In this document: positions 751 through 53,531 of the stretch, piece by piece | How positions within the stretch are numbered: position 1 is the stretch's first letter | Layout: every line of letters starts with the position of its first letter | Source of the DNA: Squalus acanthias | Lineage: Eukaryota | Direction of reading: 5' to 3' | Length of the DNA stretch: 64,000 nucleotides | NCBI GenBank assembly: GCA_030390025.1 | Contig: CM059432.1 | Span: 84,880,001 to 84,944,000 of the forward strand | Notes under the pieces: generated by a model | Database searches by the model: none | What the model saw: the letters and a program-made list of their open reading frames with translations, nothing else | What the model was told of the DNA's origin: nothing | Program-made: the position numbers and the translations under genes

Positions 751-1659
751 TCTTAGTTTATAACATACAAATTCAATGCTGTTTTATTGTGATGGATTTT
801 GGCGGGCTCCTGAAAGTAGGCATGCTAAGCTCCTTTTAAATATGATCCAGGTTTTTTATAAATTGAAACAATCTAGGTGAAGTGTCCAGACCCATAGAAC
901 AGCACACCACTGGGCAGAACAGAGCTGGAGAGAAGATAAGGCAAATCTTTAAGAAGTGATTATGTTGTTGATATTTTCAATGACTTTATCTATTTACAAG
1001 CACACATTCAGAGAATTATATATTTGAACCCATAGACCACTTTGTTTACCCACATTCATCAGTGTCTTTCCATTCAGTGTATACTCCCATTCCTTGTATT
1101 TCCTCCCAAAATGTATTACCTCACACTTATCCAAGCAAACTTATATCTGGTGCCTGTCTGCCCATTCCTCTAACCTGCCTCTGCCTTCTTGAAATCTTTC
1201 CAGTCATTCTCAGTTTACTAAGCCAAACATATTCTATGCCCTAATAAAAACAGAAAATGCTGGAAATACTCAGCATGTCAGGTAGCATCTGTGGCAAGAG
1301 AAACAGAGTTAATGGCCGCGATCTCAGAGCGGCGGCGGACCTGCGGGAAACCAGGCGGCGGCGGCAAGACTCAAAAGAGGCGGCAGAGACCAGGTAGACG
1401 TACCAATCTCCGAGCTCAGAGGGAGGGAGAGAAATAAAAAGTAATCGAAGTGTGACATCACCAGAAAGCAGGTAAGTGATTGGTTGGTGAGTATTTCTCT
1501 CTTTTTAAACTTAAACTCTGTGGTTTATAGTTTCTAAGCTCTCTGTGGTTTAGCGGGGACTGTTGGTAAACCAGGGCCCTTATGTATATCATTTAACTGT
1601 AGTGTAATTGGTGGGATTGATTTGATTTAATTTAATTTGAATTAATTAAAGGGTAAGTC

Positions 1660-2610
1660 ATGGCAGGAGAGCTCGGCCCCGTGGTATGCTCCTCCTGCGC
1701 TATGTGGGAACTCAGGGACACTTCCTGTGCTCCTGACAACCACGTGTTCAGGAAGTGTATCCAGCTACAGCTACTGGCAGACCGCATTATGGCGCTGGAG
1801 CTGCGATTGGATACATACTGGACCATTCGCGATGCTGAGGACGTCGTGGATATCACGTTTGAGCAGTTGGTCACACCGCAGGCAAAGGATGCACAGGCAG
1901 AAAGGGAATGGGTGACCAACAGACAGAGTAGTAGGCGCAGGCAGGTAGTGCAGGAGTCCCCTGCGGACATCCCCCTCTCAAACAGATATACCACTTTGAA
2001 TACTGTTGGGGGGGATGGCTTATCAGAGGAAGGCAGCAGCAGCCAACTTCCTGGCACCAGGGGTGGCTCTGCTGCACAGGACGGGAGGAAAAAGAGGGGT
2101 AGAGCTATAGTGATAGGGGATTCTATTGTAAGGGGAATAGATAGGCGTTTCTGCGGCCGCAAACGAGACTCTAGGATGGTATGTTGCCTCCCTGGTGCAA
2201 GGGTCAAGGATGTCTCGGAGCGGCTGCAGAACATTTTGGAAGGGGAAGGTGAACAGCCAGTTGTCGTGGTGCATATAGGTACCAACGATATAGGTAAAAA
2301 AGGAGATGAGATCCTAAAAGCTGAATATAGGGAGTTAGGAGGTAAATTAAAAAATAGGACCTCAAAGGTAGTAATCTCCGGATTGCTACCAGTGCCACGT
2401 GCTAGTCAGAGTAGAAATAGAAGGATATTTCAGATGAATACGTGGCTAGAGGAATGGTGCAAGGGGGAGGGATTCAAATTCCTGGGACATTGGAACCAGT
2501 TCTGGGGGAGGTGGGACCAGTACAAACCGGACGGTTTGCACCTGGGCAGGGCCGGGACCGATGTCCTAGGGGGAGTGTTTGCTAGTGCTCTGGGGGAGGG
2601 TTTAAACTAA
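1660..2610 (+). CDS. CR1 ORF1p: Cys-motif/leucine-zipper N-terminus plus SGNH/GDSL esterase domain
   Basis: Intact 316 aa with CSSC, heptad leucines, GDS, HIGTND and DGLH esterase blocks. Confidence 0.9.
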   Translation: MAGELGPVVCSSCAMWELRDTSCAPDNHVFRKCIQLQLLADRIMALELRLDTYWTIRDAEDVVDITFEQLVTPQAKDAQAEREWVTNRQSSRRRQVVQESPADIPLSNRYTTLNTVGGDGLSEEGSSSQLPGTRGGSAAQDGRKKRGRAIVIGDSIVRGIDRRFCGRKRDSRMVCCLPGARVKDVSERLQNILEGEGEQPVVVVHIGTNDIGKKGDEILKAEYRELGGKLKNRTSKVVISGLLPVPRASQSRNRRIFQMNTWLEEWCKGEGFKFLGHWNQFWGRWDQYKPDGLHLGRAGTDVLGGVFASALGEGLN

Positions 2611-2797
2611 AATGGCAGGGGGTTGGGAACCTGAGCAGGGAGACAGAGGAAAGGGAAACAAGGATAAAAGCAAAAGATAGGAAGGAGAAAAACAAAAGTG
2701 GCAGTCAGAGAAATCAACGGTTTAAATCAAACATGGCCACTGTAAATAATAATTCTAATAGGTCTAAGAGCGTTAAAAAAACAAGCCTGAAGGCTTT

Positions 2798-3540
2798 GGG
2801 GTAAAAATTGAGTCGCGCCCCATTTGGGGCGCTAACCTCGCCGGGGCGCGACTTTTAGCGCCCCGAAAAAATTAGCGGCCCCGCGCCGGAACTTCAGTGG
2901 TTGCGCCCCAAGAGGGAAGCGGGGCGCAACTGGAAGCACCCCGCATCCCTCTTGGGGCGCTGCGAGGGAATATCCTGGCGCTACGTGCCGCGGTATTGCA
3001 GGCCTTCCTCCCCTTCTTAAAGGGGAGGGACCCTGCGCAGCGCGAACCGGGGCCCAGCTGGGCTCCCAGGGATCGGGAGTGCCGGCAAAAGAGCCCGGCA
3101 CTCAAGAGAAGTGCCGGGCTCTTGGAGCGCAGCTGGCACTTCACGGTGGGGGGGCTTCACGGGGGCCGGGGACAGCAACGGGGGCAGGTGCTGGCAGGCG
3201 GCCAGCAACAAAAATGGCCGCCTGCCACCTCCCCTTTAAATATCGCCGCCCCGGCCGCACGTACGCCTACCTGAACCCGTCGGACATAGCGTCTGGCGGT
3301 AAATCAGGGGGCGCGACTGAAGATCGCGGCTGGAGCGCGAGCGGGGTGCTGCGCACGGCGATGACGTCATCGCCGGCGGCGCAGCGCCACAGGGCGCTAC
3401 CGGCTGGCGCCGCCGCTAACCTCCCGCTGAATTTTACGGGAGGCGTGGGCGGCGCTGCGCCCGGGCGTTAGCTGCTTTACGCCCCATTAGCGCCCTCTTA
3501 AGGCGCTAACGGGAGGCGCAAGCAGCTGAATTTTTCCCCC
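2798..3540. mobile_element. GC-rich Harbinger-type MITE inserted in CR1 ORF2
   Basis: TIRs GGGGTAAAAATT / AATTTTTCCCCC and 3-bp TSD TTT. Removing it restores SLKALCLNARS. Confidence 0.9.
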
Positions 3541-6418
3541 TTTGTGTCTTAATGCGAGGAGCATTCAGAATAAGGTGGATGAATTAGCTGCGCAAATAGA
3601 GGTAAACGAATGTGATTTGATTGGGATTACGGAAACATGGCTCCAGGGTGGCCAAGGCTGGGAACTCAACATCCAGGGGTATTCAATATTCAGGAAAGAT
3701 AGGCAAAAAGGAAAGGGAGGTGGCGTAGCATTGCTGGTTAAAGAGGGGATTAACACAATTGTAAGGAAGGATATTAGCTCTGATGATGTGAAATCTGTAT
3801 GGGTAGAACTGAGAAATACCAAGGGGCAGAAAACGTTAGTGGGAGTGGTATATAGACCTCCAAACAGTAATGTGGAGGTTGGGAATGGCATTAAAAGGGA
3901 AATTAGAGAAGCGTGCAATAAGGGCACAGCAGTCATCATGGGTGACTTTAATCTACATGTAGATTGGGCTAACCAAATTAGTAACAATACTGTGGAGGAG
4001 GAATTCCTGGAGTGTTTACGGGATGGTTTCCTGGACCAATATGTCGAGGAACCAACCAGAGAGCAGGCCATCTTAGACTGGGTATTATGTAATGAGAAAG
4101 GATTAATTAGCAATCTTGTTGTGCGAGGCCCCTTGGGTCGGAGCGATCATAATATGATAGAATTCTTCATTAAGATGGAGAGTGAAGTAGTTGACTCAGA
4201 GACTAGGGTTCTGAATTTAAATAAAGGAAACTATGATGGTATGAGGCGCAAGTTGGGTAGGATTGATTGGGGAATGTCACTCAAAGGGTTGATGGTGGAT
4301 AGGCAATGGCAAACATTCAAAGACCGCATGGATGAACTACAGAATTTGTTCATCCCAGTTTGGCATAAGAATAAAACAAAAAAGGTGACTCAACTGTGCT
4401 AACAAGGGAAATTAGGGATAGCATAAGATCCAAGGAGAGGTCATATAAATTGGCCAGAAAAAGCAGTTAACCTGAGGATTGGGAGCAGTTTAGGATTCAA
4501 CAAAGGAGGACAAAGGGATTAATTAAGAAGGGGGAAATAGAATGTGAGAGGAAGCTTACAGGGAACATAAAAACTAACTGTAAAAGCTTTTTTAGATATG
4601 TGAAGAGAAAAAGATTGGTGAAGTCAAGCGTAGGTCCCTTGCAGTCAGAATCAGGGGAACTTATAATGGGGAACAAAGAAATGGCTGACCAATTAAATAC
4701 ATATTTTGGTTCTGTCTTCACAAAGGAGGACACAAATAACCTCCCAGAGATGTCGGCGAACATAGGGTCTGATGAAAGGGAGGAACTGAAAGAAATCAGT
4801 ATTTGTAGGGAAATGGTGTTAGGGAAATTGGCGGGATTGAAGGCCGATAAATCCCCAGGGCCTGATAATCTACATCCTAGGGTACTTAAGGAAGTGGCCC
4901 TAGAAATAGTAGATGCATTGCTGATCATCTTCCAACATTCGATGGAATCTGGAACAATACCCATGGATTGGAGGGTAGCTAATGTTACCCCACTATTCAA
5001 AAAAGGTGGTAGAGAGAAAACGGGGAATTACAGACATTGGTAGTGGGCAAAATACTAGAGTCCATTATAAAAGATGTAATAGCAGAGCACTTGGAAAACA
5101 GTGACAGGATCGGACAAAGTCAACATGGATTTACAAAAGGTAAATCGTGCTTGACTAATCTACTGGAATTTTTTGAGGATGTAACTGGTAAAATAGATAA
5201 GGGAGATCCAGTGGATGTGGTGTATTTGGACTTTCAAAAGGCTTTCAATAAGGTCCCGCATAAGAGATTAGCGTGTAAAGTTAAGGCACATGGGATTCGG
5301 GGCAAGGTATTGACTTAGATAGAGAACTGGTTGGCAGACAGAAAGCAAAGAGTTGGAATAAACGAGTCTTTTTCCGAGTGGCAGGCAGTGACTAGTGGGG
5401 TACCGCAGGGATCGGTTCTTGTACCCCAGCTATTCACAATATATATTAATGATCTAGACAAGGGAACTAGATGTAATATCTCCAAGTTTGCAGACAAAAC
5501 AAAGCTGGGTGGGCGTGTGTGCTGTGAGGAGGATACCGAGAAACTCCAGGATGATTTGGACAGGTTGGGTGATTGGGCAGAAGCATGGCAGATGCAATAT
5601 AACGTGGATAAATGCGAGGTTATCCACTTTGGTGTCAAAAACAGGAAGGCAGATTATTATCTGAATGGCAATAGATTGGGAGAAGGGGAAGTGCAACGAG
5701 ACCTGGGTGTCCTTGTGCACCAGTCGCTGAAGGTAAGCATGCAGGTGCAGCAGGCGGTTAAGAAGGCAAATGGTATGTTGGCCTTCGTAGCGAGAGGGTT
5801 TGAGTACAGGAACAAGGATGTCTTGCTGCAGTTGTACAGGGCCTTGGTGAGACCACATCTTGAGTATTGTGTGCAGTTTTGGTCGCCTTATCTGAGGAGG
5901 GAGGTTCTTGCCATGGAAGGAGTTCAGCGAAGATTCACCAGGCTGGTACCTGGGATGGCAGGAATGATGTATGAGGAGAGATTGGGTCGATTGGGCTTAT
6001 ACTCGCTGGAGTTTAGAAGAATGAGAGGGGATCTCATTGAAACTTATAAAATTCTAAAAGGACTGGACAGACTAGATGCAGGAAGGATGTTCCCGATGGT
6101 CGGGGAGTCCAGAACCAGGGGTCACAGTCTAAGGATAAGGGGTAAGCCATTTAGGACAGAAATGAGGAGGAATTTCTTCACCCAGAGAGTGGTGAACCTG
6201 TGGAATTCTCTACCACAGAAGGCAGTAGAGGCCAATTTATTAAATATATTCAAGAAGGAGTTGGATATTTTTCTTAAGGCTAAAGGGATCAAGGGATATG
6301 GGGAGAAAGCAGTGACAGGGTTCTGAATTTGAATGATCAGCCATGATCGCATTGAATGGTGGAGCAGGCTAGAGGGGCCGAATGGCCTACTCCTGCTCCT
6401 ATTTTCTATGTTTCTATG

Positions 6419-13534: not shown

Positions 13535-15315
13535 ACACCTACATCCGCGATTCCTCTGACGCCCTCCACCACTTTAACAGTTTCCAGTTTCCCGGCCCCA
13601 ACTGCCTCCTTTTCACCATGGACGTACAATCCCTCTACACCTCCATCCCCCACCAGGATGGCCTGAGGGCGCTCCGCTTCTTCCTTGAACAGAGGCCCAA
13701 CCAGTCCCCATCCACCGCCACCCTCCTCCGCCTGGCTGAACTTGTTCTCACATTGAACAACTTCTCCTTTGACTCCACTCATTTCCTCCAAATCAAAGGT
13801 GTTGCTATGGGTACCCGCATGGGTCCTAGCTATGCCTGCCTTTTCGTGGGATATGTGGAACACTCTTTGTTCCAGTCCTACTCAGGTCCCCTCCCTCACC
13901 TCTTTTTCCGGTACATTGACGACTATATCGGTGCCTTTTCCTGCTCTCGCCCCGAACTAGACAATTTCATTCACTTTGCCTCCAATTTCCACCCTTCCCT
14001 CACCTTCAGATAGTTCATCTCCGACTCTTCCCTCCCCTTCCTCGACTTCTCCGTCTCCATCTCTGGGGATAGGTTATTGACCAACATTCACTACAAGCCC
14101 ACTGACTCCCACAGCTACCTGGACTACACTTCCTCCCACCCCGCCTCCTGTAAGGACTCTATTCCCTTCTCCCAGTTTCTCCGTCTCCGCCGCATCTGCT
14201 CCGACGATGCCACCTTCCATACCAGTGCTTCCGACATGTCTTCCTTTTTCCTCAACCGAGGATTCCCCTCTACCGTGGTTGACACAGCCCTCGACCATGT
14301 CCGTTCTATCTCCCGCACTTCTGCCCTCACCCCGGCCCCTCCCTCCCGGAACCACGATAGAGTTCCCCTTGTCCTCACCTTTCACCCCACCAGCCTCCAC
14401 ATTCAACGGATCATCCTCCGCCATTTCCGCCACCTCCAACGTGATCCCACCACCAAACATATCTTCCCCTCACCTCCCCTTTCAGCATTCCGTAGGGACT
14501 GCTCCCACCGAGACACCCTAGTCCACTCCTCTATCACCCCCAGCACCCCTTCCCCCTCGCCCGGCACCTTCCCGTGCAAGCGCAGGAGATGCAACACCTG
14601 CCCTTATACATCCCCCCTTCCCACTCTCCAGGGCCCCAAACACCCCTTCCAGGTGAAACAGCGATTTACTTGTACTTCTTGCAATCTAGTATACTGTATT
14701 CGCTGCTCACGATGTGGTCTCCTCTACATTGGGGAGACCAAACGCAGATTGGGTGACCGCTTTGCGGAACACCTCCGTTCAGTCCGTAAGGGTGACCCCG
14801 AGCTTCCGGTCGCTTGTCATTTTAATTCACCCCTCCACGCCCACTCAGACCTCACCGTCCTCGGCCTCGTGCATTGTTCCACAGAAGCTCAGCGTAAGCT
14901 CGAGGAACAGCACCTCATCTTTCGTTTAGGCACTTTACAGCCTTCCGGACTCAATATCGAGTTCAACAATTTCAGATCATAACCTTGGCCCCTACCACAT
15001 ATATATACATTTTATCCACCCTTTTGGTTCGTGCCTTTTTCCTTTTTTTTTTCTCTCTCTCCCCCTACGGCAGCTGTCTCTCATTCTGCCAGCATTTCAC
15101 ACCTCACCTTTTGTTTCTTAACCTGTCCCATTACCACCTCGTCTTGCCTTGAGCATCTCTTAATGTCTCTACTTATCATAGACCACCCCTTTTGTTCTTT
15201 TATTCCTCCCCCCAGCCTCCCCCTTGCTTTTTTATCCGTTTAATTTCCTGCTCTTTTCTCAGTTCTGACGAAGGGTTTCGACCTGAAACGTTAACTCTGT
15301 TTCTCTCTCCACGGA
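13535..15315 (+). mobile_element. 5'-truncated Penelope-like retroelement (RT plus GIY-YIG) with 3' pseudo-LTR
   Basis: MDVQSLYTSIPH, GVAMGTRMGPSYA, RYIDD, and VYCIRCSRCGLLYIGETKR...RFAEH. A single in-frame TAG at 14011 separates two same-frame ORFs. Confidence 0.95.
15261..15296 (+). ncRNA. Minimal type-I hammerhead ribozyme motif
   Basis: AGTT-CTGACGA-AGGGT TTCG ACCT-GAA-ACGT-T-AACT: core boxes, stem I AGTT/AACT, UUCG-capped stem II, palindromic ACGU stem III. Confidence 0.75.
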
Positions 15316-19461: not shown

Positions 19462-21650
19462 ATAGAAACATAGAAACATAGAAGATAGGAGCAGGAGTAG
19501 GCCATTCGGCCCCTCGAGCCTGCTCCGCCATTCGATGAGATCATGGCTGATCATCTAAACTCAGTACCCTGTACCTGCCTTCTCCCCATATCCCTTGATA
19601 CCTTTAGCTTTAAGAAATATATCTAACTCATCCTTGAATATATTTAATGACTTCGCCTCAACTACCTTCTGTGGTAGAGAATTCCACAGGTTCACCACTC
19701 TCTGGGTGAAGAAATTCTTCCTCATTTCTGTCCTAAATGGTTTACCCGCTATCCGTAGATTATGACCCCTGGTTCTGGACTCTCCGACCATCGGGAACAT
19801 TCTTCCTGCATCTAGTTTGTCCAGACCTGTCAGAATTTTATATGTTTCGATGAGATCCCCTCTCATTCTTCTACACTCCAGTGAGTATAAGCCCAATCGA
19901 CCCAATCTCTCCTCATATGTCATTCCTGCCATCCCAGGTATCAGCCTTGTGAATCTTCGCTGAACTCCTTCCATGGCAAGAACATCTTTCCTCAGATAAG
20001 GCGACCAAAACTGCACACAGTACTCAAGGTGTGGTCTCACCAAGGCCCTGTACAACTGCAGCAGGACATCCCTGTTCCTATACTCAAACCCTTTCGCTAT
20101 GAAGGCCAACATACCATTTGCCTTCTTCACCGCCTGCTGCACCTGCATGCTTACTTTCAGCGACTGGTGCACAAGGACACCCAGGTCTCGTTGCACTTCC
20201 CCTTCTCCCAATCTATTGCCATTCAGATAATAGTCTGCCTTTCTGTTTTTGACACCAAAGTGGATAACCTCGCACTTATCCACGTTATATTGCATCTGCC
20301 ACGCTTCTGCCCACTCACCCAACCTGTCCAGATCATCCTGGAGTTTCTCGCTATCCTCCTCGCTGCACACACTCCCACCCAGCTTTGTGTCATCTGCAAA
20401 CTTGGAGATATTACATTTAATTCCCTTATCTAGATCATTAATGTATATTGTGAATAGCTGGGGTCCAAGGACCGATCCCTGTGGTACCCCACTAGTCACT
20501 GCTTGCCACTCGGAAAAAGACCCATTAATTCCTACTCTCTGCTTTCTGTCCGCCAACCAGTTCTCTATCCAAGTCAATACCTTGCCCCCAATCCCATGTG
20601 CCTTAACTTTACCCGCTAATCTTTTATGCGGGACCTTATCGAAAGCCTTTTGAAAGTCCAAATACACCACATCTACTGGTTCTCCCTTATCTATTTTCCC
20701 AGTTACATCCTCAAAAAATTCCAGTAGATTAGTCAAGCACGATTTACCTTTTGTAAATCCATGTTGACTTTGTCCGATCCTGTCACTGTTTTTCAAATGC
20801 TCAGCTATTACATCCTTTATAATGGACTCTAGCATTTTCCCCACTACCGATGTCAGGCTTACCGGTCTGTAATTCCCCGCTTTCTCTCTACCACCCTTTT
20901 TGAATAGTGGGGTAACATTAGCTACCCTCCAATCCATGGGTACTGTTCCAGATTCCATCGAATGTTGGAAGATGATCAGCAATGCATCTACTATTTCTAG
21001 GGCCACTTCCTTAAGTACCCTAGGATGTAGATTATCAGGCCCTGGGGATTTATCGGCCTTCAATACCGTCAATTTCCCTAACACCATTTCCCTGCAAATA
21101 CTGATTTCTTTCAGTTCCTCCCTTTCATCAGACCGTATGTTCTCCAACATCTCTGGGAGGTTATTTGTGTCCTCCTTTGTGAAGACAGAACCAAAATATG
21201 CATTTAATTGGGCTGCCATTTCTTTGTTCCCCATTATAACTTCCCCCGCTTCTGACTGCAAGGGACCTACACTTGATTTCACTAATCTTTTTCTCTTCAC
21301 ATATCTATAAAAGCTCTTACAGTCAGTTTTTATGTTCCCAGCAAGCTTACTTTCATATTCTATTTTCCCCTTCTTAATTAATCCCTTTGTCCTCCTTTGT
21401 TGAATCCTAAACTGCTCCCAATCCTCAGGGCTACCGCTTTTTCTGGCCAATTTATATGCCCTCTCCTTGGATCTTATGCTATCCCTAATTTCCCTTGTTA
21501 GCCACGGTTGAGTCACCCTTTTTGTTTTATTCTTATGCCACACTGGGATGAACAAATTCTGTAGTTCATCCATGCAGTCTTTGAATGTTTGCCATTGCCT
21601 ATCCACCGTCAACCCCTTGAGTGACATTCCCCAATCAATCCTACCCAATT
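19462..21650 (-). mobile_element. 5'-truncated CR1 LINE with an uninterrupted 695-aa RT frame
   Basis: FADD motif intact, (tttctatg)n tail, closely similar to the 1313-6418 copy. Confidence 0.95.
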
Positions 21651-21802
21651 TCAGGTTTGAACGCGCAGGTAAGTGGTGAAGATTTTACACATAAAGAAAG
21701 CAGACGTAGGACCCCCTTTTAACAAGGTAAGTAGTTAATTAAGTGTTATTTTAAAAAATTTCAACAGGTTTATCTTTTTTAGAGACTTTAAAGAAAGGTA
21801 AG

Positions 21803-24800
21803 TGTGGTAACACAATACAGCTTCCTGTGACTCGAACTTTATTGCATCACTTCCTGTGATTAGTCCAGGATAAATACTGGACTGATCAGTTGGATCCTGG
21901 AGAGGCATAGAGTAAGACCTCTTTTGTATGTAGCACCTTTTTTAGTTGATTAAAGCTTACTTTAAGTTCACCACGCGTAAGGCTCATTCTTACGACAATT
22001 TAATCAACTTTGGAAAACTTCGCACTCAAACTTTTTGGACGAACTCGGAACTAAGGATCCAGGGAATCACCCATCATGGAAAACATCCTTAAACCATCGC
22101 GTCTTGACTTGGACCCAAACACCCCAGCAGCCGGTAAGGTGTGGAAACACTGGTATCGCACGTTTGACAATTTTCTGGAATATTGTAAGGCGAATGATGA
22201 CTCAAAGTTGCGGATACTCATCAACTGTGTCACCCTGAATGTATTTCAGTATGTGGAGGAATGGGACAGTTACGAGGAGGCAATTCGGAAGCTTAAGAGA
22301 CTATATACTAAGACACCGAATGAGGTCTATGCCAGACATCTACTTGCTACAGCCCAACAAGGGCCGGAGGAATCCATTGATAAATTCCTCCAAGAGCTTC
22401 GCAGACTTAGTATGGACTGTAACTTTCGGGCGGCCTCAGCGGAGCTGTACCGTGAAGAAATGATCCGTGATGCTTTCATCTGCGGGCTTGCCTCCCCATT
22501 TATACGCCAGCGTCTACTGGAAAGTAAGACACTTGAGCTTCAGAGAGCTTATGACATGGCTTGCTCTCTAGATCTGGCAAAAAGAAATGCAGACCTCGGT
22601 CTACTGCCTTAACTACAGTCAGGCAATTTAAGAGGCCACAGGTGAACTCTATTAGGGAGGTCTTTATCCCTGACGATCAATCTGATGACTTCACTGATGA
22701 AGAGGATGATGACCCCACTGTGGCAGCCTCTTGGCAATCTAAGAAATGCTTCTTTTGTGGTGATGAGTTCCACCCTCGGAAATTCTGCCCTGCTCGCAAT
22801 GCGTTTTGCAGTCATTGCAACAAAAAGGGTCATTTTGCAAAGGTTTGCCTATCAAGAGCCTCTATGAGGGCTTATCAAGCTAAGTCCTACCGAACTGCCC
22901 CGGTAAGGGCCTATCAAGATTTTCCGGCTAAAATCTATCATGCTTCCTCTCGAAGAAACACAGCTAGAGTTTCAGCCACTCTTTGTGCAACGACACCACT
23001 TACAGCTGCTTGTCCTCAGAACCTATTCCATGCAGCTACAAAAGCATCAATTAATGGACATACTTTAGATGCCTTAATTGACTCAGGTAGCACTGATAGT
23101 TTCATTAGGGAACAGATTGTTGCAGAGTTAAAGCTACATGTTTTCCCATCGGACCAGGCAGTTGCGATGGCTCAGTCATCACTTAATACCAGAATTTCTG
23201 GCTTTTGTAGGGTTGAAATAATACTTAATGGTCACAGGTATCCCTCCACCTGGCTTTTGGTGCTCAAGGACTTATGTAGTGATCTTATCTTAGGGCTGGA
23301 TTTTCAAAAGCAGCATAAGAAGCTCACCATTGAGTTCGGCGGATCTAAACCTGAACTCACTATTTCTAATATACTACCTTGATTACCGTTCTGTGCAATG
23401 TCAGCAGCTTCACTGGATGAACCCTCACTGTTTTCCAGTATCCCTCCTCGATGCAAACCGATTATAACAAAGTCACGACGTTTCAGTCAGGAAGACCAGT
23501 CTTTTATTGCGGCTGAGATTTCTCGGCTTTTAGCAGAAGATATCATCGAGCCTTGTTCGTCGCCATGGCGCGCCCAGGTCGTTATTGTTAAGAACCCTCT
23601 ACAACCTCACAAGAAACGGCTGTGCATTGACTATTCACAGACCATCAATCAATATACGGACTTGGACGCATACCCATTGCCGCGCATCGATGATATGGTT
23701 AATAAATTGGCTGAGTACACGGTGTTCTCAACATATGATCTAAAAAGTGCCTATCATCAGGTACCCTTGAAGGTCTCAGACAAGCAGTATACGGCCTTTG
23801 AAGCCAATGGACGGCTGTATCAATTTCGTCGCCTCCCCTTTGGGGTCACTAATGGAGTGGCTGTCTTCCAGCGAGCAATGGATGACCTGGTCAAACAGGA
23901 AGACTTGAAGGATACGTTTCCTTATCTGGACAATATTACTGTCGCAGGTCGCAATCAGCGGGAACATGACGCCAATCTCCAACGATTTTGGGATGCACTC
24001 CAGCACCGTAATTTGACATTAAATGCGGCTAAATCCATTGAGTCACAACCAACCATCAACATCCTTGGCTATTGTGTGGGCAATGGCATCATTAAACCTG
24101 ACCCTGAAAGGCTTCGCCCACTCCAAGAACTCCCGCCACCTAAGAATCCGGCCTCCTTGCGCCGGGCCCTCGGCCTGTTTGCATACTATGCTAAATGGAT
24201 TCCTAACTTCTCGGACTGAATCCAACCTCTACTGAAGGCCAGCACATTCCCACTAGACACAGCGGCTGTTGCAGCCTTTAACGTCCTGAAAAAACAGTTG
24301 GAGAAAGCGACTCTTCACTCCATCGATGAGAGTCTTCCTTTTGTCGTTGAGTGTGATGCCTCGGAGGTGGCGATCTCGGCCACTCTGAATCAGGAAGGTC
24401 GTCCGGTGGCATTTTTGTCCAGGACTTTTCAAGGGGCTGAGCTACATTATCCTCCAGTCGAGAAAGAAGCTACAGCCATCATAGAGGCAGTACGGAAGTG
24501 GAGTCACCTCCTAGCTCGCCAGCACTTTACCTTAATCACGGACCAGCGATCGGTCGCCTTCATGCTCGATAATCGAAAACGGACCAAAATTAAAAATAAT
24601 AAAATCCAGCTTTGGAGGCTGGAATTGGCCTCTTTTGGTTACACCATCCACTATCGACCTGGCAAGGAGAATGTGGCTCCAGATACCCTCACACGAGCAT
24701 TCTGCTCCGCCATGGCACCCTCTACGCTCGTAGACATCCATGATGGGTTGTGTCATCCGGGCGTTACTCGCATGCTACACTTCGTGCGGTCCCGAAATCT

Positions 24801-26254
24801 CCCATTCTCTACCGGGGATGTAAAGAAGATGTGCTCGGACTGCAGAGTCTGTGCGGAATTGAAACCTCGGTTTTTCCGCCCCTCGGGTGGTATACTCATA
24901 CATGCGACCCAGCCAATGCAACGGCTTAGCATCGATTTTAAGGGGCCGTTGCCCTCTTCAACTCGCAACACTTATCTATTGACCATGGTTGATGAGTATT
25001 CCCGTTTTCCGTTTGCCTTTCCCTGCCCCAATATGCTGACGTCCACGGTTATCAGCTGCCTTGAGCAGGTATTTGCTTTCTGTGGCATGGCATCCTATGT
25101 TCATTCGGATCGGGGCCCTTCTTTTATGTCAGGAGAACTCAAGGCCTATCTCTCGGAACAGGGTATTGCTGCCAGCAAAACGACGCCTTATCATCTGGTC
25201 GGGAATGGGCAAGTCGAGCGTTTTAACGCTATCATCTGGAATGCGGTACGTCTGGCTTTGAGATCTCGGGGCCTACCCAACCAGCAATGGGAAGCAGTAC
25301 TTCCAGACGCATTACACTCCACACGGTCCCTCCTTTCGACCGCCATAAATACGACGCCTCATGAACGGTTCTTCCGATTTCAGCGTCGCTCATCCTATGG
25401 GATATCTCTCCCGTCGTGGCTGACTGCACCGGGACCAGTGCTACTCCGAAGATATGTCCGGGCGTCTAAGAATGACCCCCTGGTAGATGAGGTTGAGCTC
25501 ACTGACGTCAACCCTACCTACGCCTATATTCGGTATCCTGACGGTCGGGAATCTACCGTGTCATTGCGGGATCTGGCTCCCTGCCCGCCAAAACATAGAG
25601 GGACACCAGGGGATGATATTGTACCAGGCACATCTCTGGGCTCGCCAGGTGCCTCTCATCATGATCTGGATCTGACGCCGGCTGGTACCTCACTCCAGCG
25701 TGCCGACCTGGGGCAGACTGACTATGAGCCCGTCGGGGCTCGCACGCGCAGCCACGATCCACCCTGTACCGTACGCTCGGAAACTGATCTGCCACAGCCC
25801 TGCCCGACACCCGTTCGGGCACCAGTACACAGTCAGGATCGTCCTGACCCCTCACAGAGCGGGCTGGATCACTCGGACTCTGGTCCACGGCCCGCGGCGG
25901 GTAAACGGGCTAGGGGCCCTCTACCGCAACGAGAACCCAAACGGGTGCGGCTCTCCCTCGTCCAGCGGCTACGAAATGGAGGGAGAATGTGGTAACACAA
26001 TACAGCTTCCTGTGACTCGAACTTCATCCCGGCCTCCTAATCTTTTGGGGGGGGGAGAATGTGGTAACACAATACAGCTTCCTGTGACTCGAACTTTATT
26101 GCATCACTTCCTGTGATTAGTCCAGGATAAATACTGGACTGATCAGTTGGATCCTGGAGAGGCATAGAGTAAGACCTCTTTTGTATGTAGCACCTTTTTT
26201 AGTTGATTAAAGCTTACTTTAAGTTCACCACGCGTAAGGCTCATTCTTACGACA
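21803..26254 (+). mobile_element. Ty3/Gypsy LTR retrotransposon (Mag-like gag)
   Basis: 195-bp LTRs at 21803-21997 and 26060-26254 (TG..CA, identical by eye), 5-bp TSD GTAAG, PPT. Domain order is gag (double Cys/His knuckle), PR (DSGS), RT, RNase H (CDAS), IN (HHCC, DFKGP, SDRG). Confidence 0.97.
22076..25995 (+). pseudogene. Gypsy gag-pol with one frameshift and two in-frame TGA stops
   Basis: Frame change near 22590. TGA at 23380 and 24217, with the same frame continuing after each. Confidence 0.9.
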
Positions 26255-26749
26255 GTAAGTTTATTTTTATAACTTTTAAAAAGATTTTAAATTTTTTCAA
26301 AAATTTAATTTTTTGTTTAAAGTGGTTAATTTATTTAACTATAGTTATTTTATTAATGTGATGTCTTTTTTTTAAATTTAATTGAGGTTTAGCTGTTCTT
26401 TTGGGGGCTTGTAGTATTCATAGCTTTGACAGCCCTTGCTGTCAAAACTATGAATGAAAGATGGTGTGCTGCCATTGGCTCTAACTGAATCACATGATCC
26501 CAGAGCTCGCACGAACTAATTGCGCCTCTGGGACACGCAAGCACTGCACGGTTGCAACAGGGAGAGGCCCTGAAACTGAAGTTCGTGTGGGCCCCAAACA
26601 AAAAGGTAGGCGCGGAGTGCGATATCGCGGGGAATCCTTACCCCCGCGGGAACCATCGATGTTTAATTTCTGGGCCATTAATACACCTTATATAAGCAGG
26701 AGTTCATTATTGCTAATCTTTTGTTTTGTTTTCCTTAGCTACTTTTTAA

Positions 26750-30739: not shown

Positions 30740-31830
30740 GTATGGATTTCCCCATGAGGATACCTCGCTTAGCTTTAATTTTAAGGAGGAGGGACAGCAG
30801 CAGCATTTGGTGAGAAGGAGAGTCAGGCAGCCTGGCAAACGACTGCAGCCCACAAGATATTACCACCCCCTCCCAAAGAAGCTATCGGCAGGACAGGTCC
30901 TATGAGGACTTCTCTGAGGAGCTGTGTGTCAGAAAGGTTCGCTCTCCAAAGGTGCCAGTGGTCATCTCTGTGACCTTCTGAATGAAGATCTGAAGCTACG
31001 CTCATCTGCCAACACTGCTCTCTATCTGTGACTAAGAACGTCACCACTGCCCTCATTTTTTTTAAATCTCAAGCTCATTTCAAGCATCCACAGGGGATCT
31101 CTGCAACGTAAGACAGGGAGCAGTAAGGGTATCAGGGAGAAGAAAGGGCACCGGGGAGCAGTAAGGGCACCGGGGAGCAGTAAGGGCACCGGGGAGCAGT
31201 AAGGGCACCGGGGAGCAGTAAGGGCACCGGGGAGCAGTAAGGGCACCGGGGAGCAGTAAGGGCACCGGGGAGCAGTAAGGGTATCAGGGAGAAGAAAGGG
31301 CACCGGGGAGCAGTATGGGCACCGGGGAGCAGTAAGGGCACCGGGGAGCAGTAAGGGTATCAGGGAGAAGAAAGGGCACCGGGGAGCAGTAAGGGCACCG
31401 GGGAGCAGTAAGGGCACCGGGGAGCAGTAAGGGCACCGGGGAGCAGTATGGGCACCGGGGAGCAGTAAGGGCATGCATATGCCAGATCACGGACAGCCTG
31501 TACAGCAGAGTAGCCCACTTCATTATGGGGTTGCTGGCTTCCCCAAGGGACAAGTGTCCAATCGATGGCATCCATGTCGCATTGAACCCCTTCACCTATG
31601 TGAACAGGAAGGGATTCCAGTCTATGAATGTGCACATAGTTTGTGAGGCCATTCAGAGGGTCCTTCATGTCAATGCCCAGTATGCAGGAAGCTTCCATGG
31701 CACATTCATCCCCCAACATTTAGCGCTCCCTCATCTCTTCAGAGAAGAAAATAATATAACCAGATGGCTACTGGGTGACAAGGCATTCCCCTGGGTGGAT
31801 TACCTATATCCTGGCCAGCACTCATCCCAT
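30740..31830 (+). pseudogene. Harbinger (HARBI1-like) transposase remnant
   Basis: IDGIHVAL, YVNRKGFQSMNVHIVC, AQYAGSFH, WLLGDKAFP. Confidence 0.8.
31114..31472 (+). repeat. 19-bp minisatellite (gggcaccggggagcagtaa)n, about 19 copies
   Basis: Direct tandem units, with a recurring variant gggtatcagggagaagaaa. Confidence 0.95.
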
Positions 31831-49956: not shown

Positions 49957-52034
49957 CTGGAAAAGGAAACAAAATACAATGTACTGCATGACCAGACATA
50001 CATCCTTCATTAGACAAGAGATTATGAAATTGTTCCTCAGATGATATGAGATCATTAATGAGCTCTATTGTTTTCCAGGACAGTTATTCCATACTCATAG
50101 AGACTAGATTCATTTTAGGGTACACCATTAATTATTTATATAAAAGCTATTTCATTCACATGAAATAACAGCAGGATAGTGAGCACAAAATGTATATACA
50201 CATAAAGGGCAGGAGTTGTTAATACTTCCAGTGCAATTCGCCCGAAATCGGCCAAACCAGCGCAAAAGATCGAAGAATTTTAAGCACAAATTACGTTCGT
50301 CACAAATCAAGTTTCCGCGATCTTCTGCGCTAGTTGAAAAAACATTGCATTAGAATCCGGGTCCACCCACAAACCTGGCCACGCCCTCAGATCGAATGAA
50401 TCACCATTGCAAGTGTTCGCTAATTGCGCCCGTTTGCGGGCCTTCGAGGAGGCTCTTAAAATTAAGCTGTTTTTGTTAGGCGCAAGGACACGAATAGGCA
50501 GGTTTTAAGAGCTTTTGAATTTTTTTTTAATTTACTAAGAAACTGAGGGATAAAAATTGGGTAGCATCCCCTTCAAAGCAAACATTTTTCTTTAAAAAAT
50601 TACGTTCTAAAATGCTGCCCAATTGCACTGGTTTGTTGAAGATTTTACATTCGGCGATATGCAAATGAGCTTGAGTGGAAACTTGAGTAAAAAAATTTTC
50701 TCAAAACAAGCGCAATTTTGGGCACAATTTGCGCCTAGATCACCGATTGGGCCCAAAGCGGAAACTCTAACCCAAACTGTATTTCTCAGTGAGCACCTTG
50801 TAAAGGACGTTAATTAATACAATGGCCAGGCTTGTGTCTGTGAACGAGTGCTCATTAGCTTCGTACTTGTTCGTCCAACAAAGCAACACAACCAGAGAGG
50901 TTCAGAGGTCTGCACTGAGATTCTGTGACTAACTTCTAAATTATTTGTAGTTTTTTAAATAAATCTACAGTCATCTTTCTGATGTAAGGATTTGCCCTAT
51001 TGTCAATTTCAAAATAAAGGGGCCATCATGTTACAGCAAATCAGGTTGTAGTAACATTCTTCAAAAACTGCAGAGAGTTGGGGGCATCCCGGGTCTGTCA
51101 TTCCTCTTTTACTGAAAAATGTAACAAATCCTTTTTCTTCCCCCATAATTAATGAACTGTTATAAACTGCAGCTTTGAGCTCTGCAATTTCTGAGAATAT
51201 AATTTCATCAGTGTGGCAATGATAAGTAGCAGGCAACCACTATGCACCTCCAATAATACAGTGGTAATGATTTTCAATTTGCTGATGAATTACTTAACGA
51301 GAATCATTTTCAAAAAAAATTGATAATCCATCTGCACTAATGCTCTGAGAAAATTCCTCTGAATGATTTACTTCTCTCACAGCTGTGGAGATCCTTTGGC
51401 ACCTTTCCTTCATTTAACTCACTAACCTCAGGTCTGACCTACAGTAAAATATATACATTTTAATTCGACTCTTCAGCTGTGGAATGCTGCATGAGTTTAT
51501 AATTAATGATCTTAAAAAAGTCTTAACGCATAAAGAAACAAACTTCTTCTCACTTTTGGCTAAGGTATTTTATTCCTTTTCGGGGGGTATGAATGCTTAG
51601 ATCAACATTAAACATGCATAACTGGCCCGCGGCATTTTCTATTGACATTTTATTACTTCCTATACTCTAAAACTGGCAAAAAGAGGATTGTCAGGGGGTA
51701 ATTTTGGAATTGAAAATCAGGAGTGATGTATAATGGGCGGCTGAATCGATATCGTCTGTTTTACACTATCACCCAAAGTGAAAATTACCCCCGAGAGAGA
51801 AGGAAATAGAAAATTTGATAGTAGAACTAATTGCAAAGGATTAAATTGGACACATGCAATCATGAGAGAGGCGCACTAATGGTCCAACATTCCCACATTG
51901 TTAACAGTCAAAACAGCATCCAAAATACAACTGATTGGAAAAAGAATCTTCAATTATCAAAAACTGAAAACCTTCTGAGTGCTCCAGCTCAGCTCAATTC
52001 AAATACCATTTTAGATTATGAAAGCTCGCATCTG

Positions 52035-53531
52035 AGTCTAACATCTGTGGTGGGTAAAATTTTGGAGTCTATTATTAAGGAGACAGTAACGGAACATTTA
52101 GATGAACATAATTTAATAGGACAAAGTCAGCATGGCTTTATGAAGGGGAAGTCATGTCTGACAAATTTGCTTGAGTTCTTTGAGGACATAACGTACAGGG
52201 TGGATAAAGGGGAACCAATGGACGTAGTGTATTTAGACTTCCAGAAGGCATTCGACAAGGTGCCACATAAAAGATTATTGCTCAAGATAAAAAATCACTG
52301 GATTGGGGGGAATATTCTGGTATGGGTGGAGGATTGGTTATCTAACAGGAAGCAGAGAGTTGGGATAAATGGTTCATTCTCGGACTGGCAACCAGTAGCC
52401 AGTGGTGTTCCGCAGGGGTCGGTGCTGGGTCCCCAACTCTTTACAATCTATATTAACGATTTGGAGGAGGGGACCGAGTGTAACATATCAAAGTTTGCAG
52501 ATGATACAAAGATGGGAGGGAAAGTAGAAAGTGAGGAGGACATAAAAAACCTACAAGGGGATATAGACAAGCTGGGTGAGTGGGCGGAGATTTGGCAGAT
52601 GCAATACAATATTGGAAAATGTGAGGTTATGCACTTTGGCAGGAAAAATCAGAGAGCAAGTTATTATCTTAATGGCGAGAAACTGGAAAGTACTGCAGTA
52701 CAAAGGGATCTGGGGGTCCTAGTGCAAGAAAATCAAAAAGTTAGTATGCAGGTGCAGCAGGTGATCAAGAAAGCCAATGGAATGTTGGCTTTTATTGCTA
52801 GGGGGATAGATTATAAAAACAGGGAGGTATTGCTGCAGTTATATAAGGTATTGGTGAGACCGCATCTGGAATACTGCATACAGTTTTGGTGTCCATACTT
52901 AAGAAAAGACATACTTGCTCTCGCGGCAGTACAAAGAAGGTTCACTCGGTTAATCCCCGGGATGAGGGGGTGGACATACAAGGAGAGGTTGAGTAGATTG
53001 GGACTCTACTCATTGGAGTTCAGAAGAGTGAGAGGCGATCTCATTGAAACATATAAGATTGTGAAGGGGCTTGATCGGGTGGATGCGGTAAGGATGTTCC
53101 CAAGGATGGGTGAAACTAGAACTAGGGGGCATAATCTTAGAATAAGGGGCTGCTCTTTCAAAACTGAGATGAGGAGAAACTTCTTCACTCAGAGGGTAGT
53201 AGGTCTGTGGAATTTGCTGCCCCAGGAAGCTGTGAAAGCTACATCATTAAATAAATTTAAAACAGAAATAGACAGTTTCCTAGAAGTAAAGGGAATTAGG
53301 GGTTATGGGGAACGGGCAGGAAATTGGACATGAGGCTGAGTTCGGATCGGTCGAGGCCCTGTGGGTGGCGTAGCGGGCCCAGGGGCTGAGTGGCCGGGTC
53401 CTGCTCCTACTTCTTGTGTTCTTTAGATTTAAGGTGAGGATCAGATCAGCCATGATCTTATTGAATGGCGGAGCAGGCTCGAAGGGCCGATTGGCCTACT
53501 CCTGCTCCTATTTCTTATGTTCTTATGTTCT
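52035..53531 (+). mobile_element. 5'-truncated CR1 LINE with an intact RT frame and a double 3' tail
   Basis: Homology begins at SLTSVVGK, FADD intact, stop at 53333, (ttcttatg)n tail. Confidence 0.95.

Follow-up and report, generated by a model that had tools for sequence, protein, structure and literature searches.

The Gypsy retrotransposon at positions 21803–26254 of the analyzed window (a stretch of 64,000 nucleotides of the Squalus acanthias genome) carries, in place of a tRNA primer-binding site (PBS), an exact complement of a segment of its own LTR, and the sequence comparisons described below indicate that Tf1-like self-priming with an 11- to 16-nt primer is very probably the best explanation of this pairing. 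More tentatively, we lean towards the view that a widespread, Mag-related clade of animal Gypsy elements evolved tRNA-independent self-priming apart from the Tf1/sushi group and with an RNA architecture of its own (an 11–16-bp duplex ending in TAAA, a hairpin behind the cut, and no pretzel), its PBS being rewritten from the primer in each cycle and an untemplated-base scar marking the primer 5′ end. The element is a complete copy on the plus strand, with two LTRs, a target-site duplication (TSD), gag, protease, reverse transcriptase (RT), RNase H and integrase, and it shows both Ty3/Gypsy hallmarks, namely TG...CA LTRs with a TSD and the gag-PR-RT-RH-IN order. Its features are as follows.

21798–21802, plus strand: 5′ TSD GTAAG, 5 bp; duplications of 5 bp were seen at other copies too (comparison by eye)
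21803–21997, plus strand: 5′ LTR, 195 bp, TG...CA, 100% identical to 26060–26254
21869–21876, plus strand: TATA-like GATAAATA; the LTR arm lies 75 nt downstream
21886–21891, plus strand: initiator-like TCAGTT
21944–21954, plus strand: LTR arm AGTTGATTAAA, the predicted self-primer, with the predicted cut 3′ of 21954
21949–21954, plus strand: ATTAAA poly(A) hexamer within the LTR arm
21955–21967, plus strand: short hairpin GCTTA/TAAGT adjoining the predicted cut on its 3′ side; mostly RCCT/AGGY in relatives
21976–21994, plus strand: U5-end hairpin CGTAAG/CTTACG, not conserved across the clade
21998, plus strand: one-base spacer (A) between the LTR-terminal CA and the PBS
21999–22009, plus strand: PBS TTTAATCAACT, complement of the LTR arm
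22076–22848, plus strand: gag, with CCHC knuckles at 22747 and 22807, broken by a frame change near 22590–22612
22555–23382, plus strand: nucleocapsid and aspartic protease, with an in-frame stop at the end
23383–24219, plus strand: reverse transcriptase, with a YLDN motif at 23923 and an in-frame stop at the end
24220–25995, plus strand: RNase H and integrase, without a chromodomain or SH3_Tf2-1 match
25973–26026, plus strand: extra purine tract and the first ~39 nt of an LTR; the true 3′ LTR lies 72 nt further on
26047–26059, plus strand: polypurine tract GGGGGGGGGAGAA
26060–26254, plus strand: 3′ LTR, without a downstream pairing partner
26255–26259, plus strand: 3′ TSD GTAAG

Despite the identical LTRs, the coding region is disrupted by one frame change and two stops, and for this reason the element is probably a defective copy that was mobilized in trans. 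Other copies have open frames of 1300–1325 amino acids, and in intact homologs gag-pol is a single frame. The family of the window element (family A; 912 first-look candidates, 40 of them scored, in a 3.7-Gb genome) is young and abundant in Squalus acanthias. A second purine tract with an LTR start, 71–72 nt ahead of the true 3′ LTR, was also seen in L343, L345 and L347, that is, in three of seven other copies, and was missing from the other four (12 copies were fetched, 5 of which had no anchor); it is an inherited variant that perhaps arose via aberrant plus-strand priming. The insertion site (flanks 21700–21802 and 26255–26300) is itself repeated sequence, and many deep contigs run from the flank into the post-insertion flank. 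Elsewhere in the window, segments 1657–6326, 14014–14982, 19561–21684, 31059–31531 and 51831–53333 hold other repeats and ORFs, including LINE pieces (esterase-type ORF1, endonuclease, RT), a GIY-YIG ORF, which we take to be Penelope-like, two further RT ORFs and a 19-nt minisatellite.

The initial annotation had proposed that an 11-nt match to the element's own LTR replaces the tRNA-type PBS, and this was confirmed, as TTTAATCAACT, which starts one base past the 5′ LTR, is the exact reverse complement of AGTTGATTAAA. The positions that it gave for the TATA-like box, TCAGTT and ATTAAA were correct as well, the gag that it described as Mag-like does have two CCHC knuckles, and it was right in its remark that the partner is present only after the 5′ LTR, since no complement was found downstream of the 3′ LTR. 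It had also reported no TGG-type tRNA site after the 5′ LTR. The nearest TGG (22011–22013) lies 14 nt from the LTR and was rejected as a tRNA site because it is polymorphic in family A (A at 22013 in 29 of 32 protein-selected copies) and absent in two further families, B and C. The chance of such a match was assessed by counting complements of at least 11 nt that begin 0–5 nt past the LTR, both for shuffled LTRs and for other window positions; they occurred in 11 of 20,000 shuffles (5.5e-4) and at 1 of 9,015 positions. Furthermore, RNA begun at 21944 folds into the arm-PBS duplex (z = −2.6 for 21944–22020). A second LTR variant, seen in contigs assembled from four runs, has an A at 21943 and hence a potential twelfth pair; these contigs stop short of the PBS and leave arm and PBS unlinked, so the variant was not counted.

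Families B and C were found by searching the same genome with diverged Gag proteins. Their LTRs differ from those of family A, and the core pairing is the same, with a covarying twelfth pair added (C:G in B, A:T in C). In subfamily C2 the core itself is altered on both sides (AGTCGATTAAA/TTTAATCGACT), and the pairing is perfect in 16 of 29 parsed copies. Ten of 30 C2 copies have a T in the LTR arm facing a G in the PBS, a wobble that speaks against immediate re-copying of the PBS and could stem from CpG decay or from recombination with family C. One copy (L240, G000:C4:156657500-156664999) is a recombinant, its LTRs being 88% alike and derived from different subfamilies (C2 and C), with C in the arm of the 5′ LTR and T in that of the 3′ LTR. 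The genome also holds retrovirus-type copies (L221–L225 and L236; YVDD, a single CCHC, about 9 kb, TGGCG-type primer site), which served as outgroups and controls only.

Beyond this genome, Gag homologs were identified in records labelled as proteins of a sea anemone, a woodlouse, a scorpion, a spider, a rotifer and a nematode, and a metagenome scan with an RT alignment left 80 loci, 49 of which were examined; gag was recognized in 40 of them, and 37 entered the analysis. In 29 of these 37 relatives, the 11-mer located one base past the LTR-terminal CA pairs, with at most one mismatch, with an LTR stretch 21–68 nt upstream. The one-base spacer is given in every anchored family by the construction of the anchor, and LTR ends were checked against paired repeats. 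Among the remaining eight, three (L105, L111, L115) had no anchor and five (L117, L141, L151, L154, L162) had two to four mismatches, the latter being decayed, truncated or interrupted copies as judged by eye. L144/L150 and L170, excluded for partial gag, show imperfect arms in the same layout (again by eye). The same anchored procedure gave a match in 0.8% of shuffles and left four mismatches in each of six tRNA-type control elements of the same genome.

Covariation was analyzed in 21 hand-grouped families, each represented by its best-pairing member. Watson-Crick pairs occupied 227 of 231 duplex cells, against 196 for the best of 100,000 partner permutations, although these statistics are optimistic because the representatives were the best-pairing ones, the families are related and the permutation ignores phylogeny. 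Duplex positions 1–4 (TAAA/TTTA) and 10 (G:C) are nearly fixed, positions 5–9 vary on both sides, and all four pair types occur at each of positions 6 and 7; comparison of L103 with L102 revealed a further double change in arm and PBS. The initial annotation had inferred that a Gypsy element with a Mag-like gag could prime itself as Tf1 does, without a tRNA, and had put forward covariation as the test; this covariation was indeed found. Because the PBS tracks each family's own LTR, a single fixed tRNA primer is excluded, and we give almost no credence to the more general idea that priming is done by a tRNA or a piece of one, with the LTR match a coincidence. The D-loop of tRNA-Ile could pair with the family A PBS if two G-U pairs are allowed. 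Examples of priming by half-tRNAs come from Copia lineages (PMC6317226, PMC10886601). However, the PBS differs widely among families and follows each family's own LTR. A search of the genome for tRNA genes gave 63 matches at 30 loci, representing 7 distinct genes of two types (Lys and Cys), a set too small to be informative, in which no gene pairs with the PBS over at least 8 nt; no tRNA gene was found within the 64-kb window.

The extent of the pairing would indicate the size of the predicted primer. At position 12, arms pair with their own PBS in 20 of 21 families, compared with a cross-family frequency of 0.32; the corresponding values are 16 of 21 versus 0.28 at position 16 and 3 of 21 versus 0.28 at position 17, with background beyond. 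This sharp drop at 16/17 implies that the pairing partner has a defined 5′ limit. As to the 11-nt piece invoked in the initial annotation, the exact 11-nt match holds for the window copy, but 11 nt is the lower end of the observed range and the primer need not have this length, since most families pair over 12–16 nt. A further sign comes from position +14 of the PBS, the first base past the 13-bp duplex, which is the sole site at which three or more alleles recur, both in family C (327 sites, alignment of 48 out of 50 copies; A 39, G 7, C 2) and in C2 (27 of 30 copies over 340 sites; A 16, C 6, T 3, G 2). The alleles are spread over several haplotype backgrounds, and the site-specific P values are 3e-4 (C) and 1e-4 (C2), those for any site being 0.11 and 0.05 for a signal that was spotted post hoc. 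In families A (two alleles, at +15) and B (length variants and other multi-allelic sites) such a signal is unclear. This hypervariable base fits an RT that overruns the 5′ terminus of a short primer while making plus-strand strong-stop DNA; for the Tf1 RT, untemplated base addition and copying of the PBS into cDNA 3′ ends have been described (PMC11042837).

The position of the transcription start bears directly on this interpretation. A TATA-like box upstream of the arm, at 75 nt in family A and 90–92 nt in B and C, argues against a short self-primer, as it points to an upstream start that would place the arm inside R. The RNA might accordingly begin about 30 nt past this box (near 21899), in which case a 55–75-nt 5′ piece would be released, its last 11–16 nt would pair with the PBS, and the outer duplex edge would mark a second cleavage or a point where copying halted. 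Such a long primer, which we regard as very unlikely, agrees with the conservation of the ATAAATACT box in A, B and C, with the finding that folding begun at 21887 retains the arm-PBS duplex, and with an outer duplex end that coincides with a pyrimidine-purine start in some families only. Yet a TATA-like box at comparable distance is present in only 7 of the 21 families, the pairing ends abruptly at 16/17, and copying of a long primer would have turned +14 of C and C2 into the templated base T, yet T is the rarest base there, with none among the 48 copies of C and three among the 27 of C2. No TATA-like box near −30 of the arm was detected by regex in the 21 families; an A/T-G at −11/−10 is conserved among them, and the first base of the arm is the A of TTAGTT, which we take to be an initiator-like motif. 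For Tf2, alternative starts have been reported, a single one of which supports replication (PMC5341516), and by the same token both the arm start and an upstream start could be used here. In L129, L135, L142, L147, L149 and L161, a pyrimidine tract ending in CAG was noted by eye in the 5′ LTR, 10–20 nt upstream of the arm, and some of them have GT donor-like motifs further upstream; the tract is a possible intron or trans-splice acceptor.

The initial annotation had offered another function for the duplex, namely that it conceals the ATTAAA poly(A) signal of the 5′ LTR, which would suppress premature polyadenylation. In this reading, the duplex hides the signal or else regulates gag translation, and something else primes. 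In 11 of 21 families the last bases of the arm indeed read A(A/T)TAAA, TAAA is nearly invariant, and the partner occurs only after the 5′ LTR. In many relatives (L102, L106, L109, L110, L134, L147) the gag ATG lies 0–21 nt past the duplex, close enough that the priming fold might in addition decide whether the RNA is translated or packaged. Masking is nevertheless not the general function, because in 10 of 21 families the arm is devoid of a hexamer, and in two of these a free one lies in the loop. Furthermore, it requires no partner fixed one base past the LTR, leaves the element without a primer site and does not predict the hypervariable base at +14. We therefore judge this explanation of the duplex to be decidedly improbable; poly(A) masking is at most a secondary effect that may help in some families.

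The region behind the predicted cut shows a structural feature of its own. A hairpin of 4–6 bp directly 3′ of this site was found in 16 of 21 families (3.5 expected) when Watson-Crick cores were counted, although under a looser test that allowed wobble pairs it was not above shuffles (6 versus 4.9). The additional duplexes of the Tf1 pretzel are absent at this level of comparison, the U5-end duplex occurring in 3 of 21 families (3.8 expected) and the 3′-flank duplex likewise in 3 of 21 (2.8 expected). The conserved hairpin is also relevant to the question of whether the primer acts in cis. Complementarity alone cannot tell cis from trans, and in an abundant family (912 first-look candidates) the PBS of an RNA might anneal to the arm of the other RNA packaged with it, or to a short transcript derived from a solo or 3′ LTR. 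We find such priming in trans very improbable, as the loop is short and constrained (21–68 nt), the hairpin beside the cut is conserved and the cis fold is favorable (see the z value above).

Self-priming is favored by the location of the complement, one base past the LTR-terminal CA and thus at the place required of a primer, in an element without a tRNA-type TGG, and it can be described as the following series of predicted steps. The replicating RNA would start at 21944 or a few bases upstream, and its first 11–16 nt would fold onto the PBS (21999–22009). By analogy with Tf1, from which both the enzyme and the cut site are taken, the element's RNase H would cut after TAAA (21954/21955) and thereby free a 3′ end. 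Minus-strand synthesis would then copy U5 and the part of R that lies 3′ of the cut before jumping to the 3′ end of the RNA. Plus-strand strong-stop synthesis would copy the short primer to its 5′ end, so that the PBS would be regenerated from the LTR arm, and it would leave untemplated or miscopied bases just past the PBS. The ATTAAA in the arm would do its work in the 3′ LTR, and hiding it in the 5′ copy may be a side benefit in some families.

The placement of the clade was examined in a tree of 602 RT-RH-IN columns and 31 sequences, in which the chromovirus-type references are unnamed records from viral contigs rather than Tf1 or sushi themselves. The self-pairing elements form one clade (support 100/100), which is sister to Mag-type elements of the same genome (99.6/100) and apart from the chromovirus-type clade (100/100). 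The RT phylogeny suggested in the initial annotation thus groups the element with feature-defined Mag-type elements, but a forced sisterhood with the chromovirus-type records was not rejected (AU test, p = 0.067). With RT-RH alone, the support was 95.8 and the p value for forced chromovirus sisterhood 0.34. At L125 a different element had been picked, and this row was dropped from the RT-RH tree and restricted in the RT-RH-IN tree. The Mag-type sister elements have two CCHC arrays, ~120-bp LTRs and TGGCG-type tRNA sites, and show no self-complement; RT-RH identity between them and the self-pairing clade is only 26–31%, and the latter has a long stem of its own. The label "Mag-like" is accordingly a provisional one, given by features and by a tree whose outgroup consists of feature-defined Mag-type elements, not of named Mag sequences.

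Neither Chromo nor SH3_Tf2-1 was detected in the integrase piece of the window element or in any of the seven homologs scanned (P0030 being partial), and the same scan recovered a chromodomain and SH3_Tf2-1 in L241 and L242, two chromovirus-type elements near the ends of which no self-complement of at least 11 nt was found. An SH3_Tf2-1 search of the genome led to retrovirus-type copies, and the chromovirus outgroups were taken from viral contigs, in which no relatives of the window element's gag were found. DUF4939, a sushi-type gag family, had no match in the element's own genome, and the control likewise matched nowhere. Two CCHC knuckles are present in 20 of 21 long homologs. Moreover, the RT motif reads YxDN rather than YxDD in 18 of 30 homologs that have it (P0001–P0048), as well as in young families of this genome (23923–23934 in the window), so that the last aspartate of the motif seems, from these sequences, to be dispensable in much of the clade.

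The arrangement resembles that of Tf1 and Tf2 of Schizosaccharomyces pombe, of Tj1 and of Tf1/sushi chromoviruses, which have an LTR-adjacent PBS that complements their own LTR over a core of about 11 nt and have no tRNA site (PMC7175516, PMC4600332, PMC5341516, PMC10085805). In Tf1, the first 11 nt pair with the PBS and RNase H cleaves between nucleotides 11 and 12 (PMC7175516), so that for yeast elements self-priming has experimental proof; Tf1 also has the three-duplex structure known as the pretzel (PMC10085805). By contrast, the window clade has no chromodomain or SH3_Tf2-1 module and, in place of the pretzel, a hairpin 3′ of the cut; its duplex measures 11–16 nt, its loop is short, and a poly(A) hexamer often lies in the arm. 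It also carries two CCHC knuckles, where chromoviruses usually have one (PMC2577118), and falls outside the chromodomain-bearing elements in the tree. The clade probably works like Tf1 yet lacks two features of Tf1/sushi membership, the chromodomain and the pretzel, and its self-priming is probably of separate origin. In Mag elements, a tRNA-type PBS is usual. The Mag lineage (A-, B- and C-clades; Mag, CFG1, SURL, Jule) is otherwise alike in its two CCHC arrays (PMC2577118), LTRs of about 200 bp, length of about 4.5 kb and fused gag-pol frame (PMC11117352 for short LTRs and the fused frame; cf. also PMC6238403), and the window clade differs from it in the YxDN motif and, compared with Mag-type elements of the same genome, in having the self-complement instead of a TGGCG-type tRNA site.

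Self-priming has also been predicted for plant Tcn1 (Gypsy) and TAR/Houba/Osr-1 (Copia) by looking for at least 10 nt that start 0–5 bp past the LTR and are complementary to it (PMC6317226), a pattern seen in the window element too. These plant elements belong to another superfamily or lineage and to other hosts, Tcn1 being related to Tf1/sushi, and on their account self-priming has been proposed to have arisen more than once. Papers that mention self-priming tie it to Tf1/sushi, Tcn1 and the plant Copia TAR lineage (PMC3601003, PMC6317226, PMC6934838, 10.1101/2023.10.26.564294, PMC5341516, PMC6238403, PMC11042837, PMC2774666, PMC4600332, PMC7175516, PMC10886601, PMC11117352, PMC2577118, PMC10085805). 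Our literature search met no description of self-priming in a non-chromoviral animal Gypsy clade, though Repbase or subscription papers may carry an earlier note.

Self-priming has so far been regarded as characteristic of a single group of chromoviruses, and a second case has been proposed in plant Copia elements. If our interpretation is true, a separate, animal-wide and currently amplifying self-priming clade exists, the switch away from tRNA is repeatable, and RNase H is able to cleave an RNA duplex that is embedded in another kind of structure. The finding is also relevant to the question, raised in PMC3601003, of whether hairpin priming is the ancestral or the derived state. With the hypervariable base next to the duplex, primer length can be estimated from sequence alone in further families suspected of self-priming, and since young, abundant copies reside in a vertebrate-sized genome, the start site and the primer are directly measurable in host RNA. 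Finally, elements of the window clade would, if they indeed prime themselves, evade silencing by 3′ tRNA fragments aimed at tRNA-type sites.
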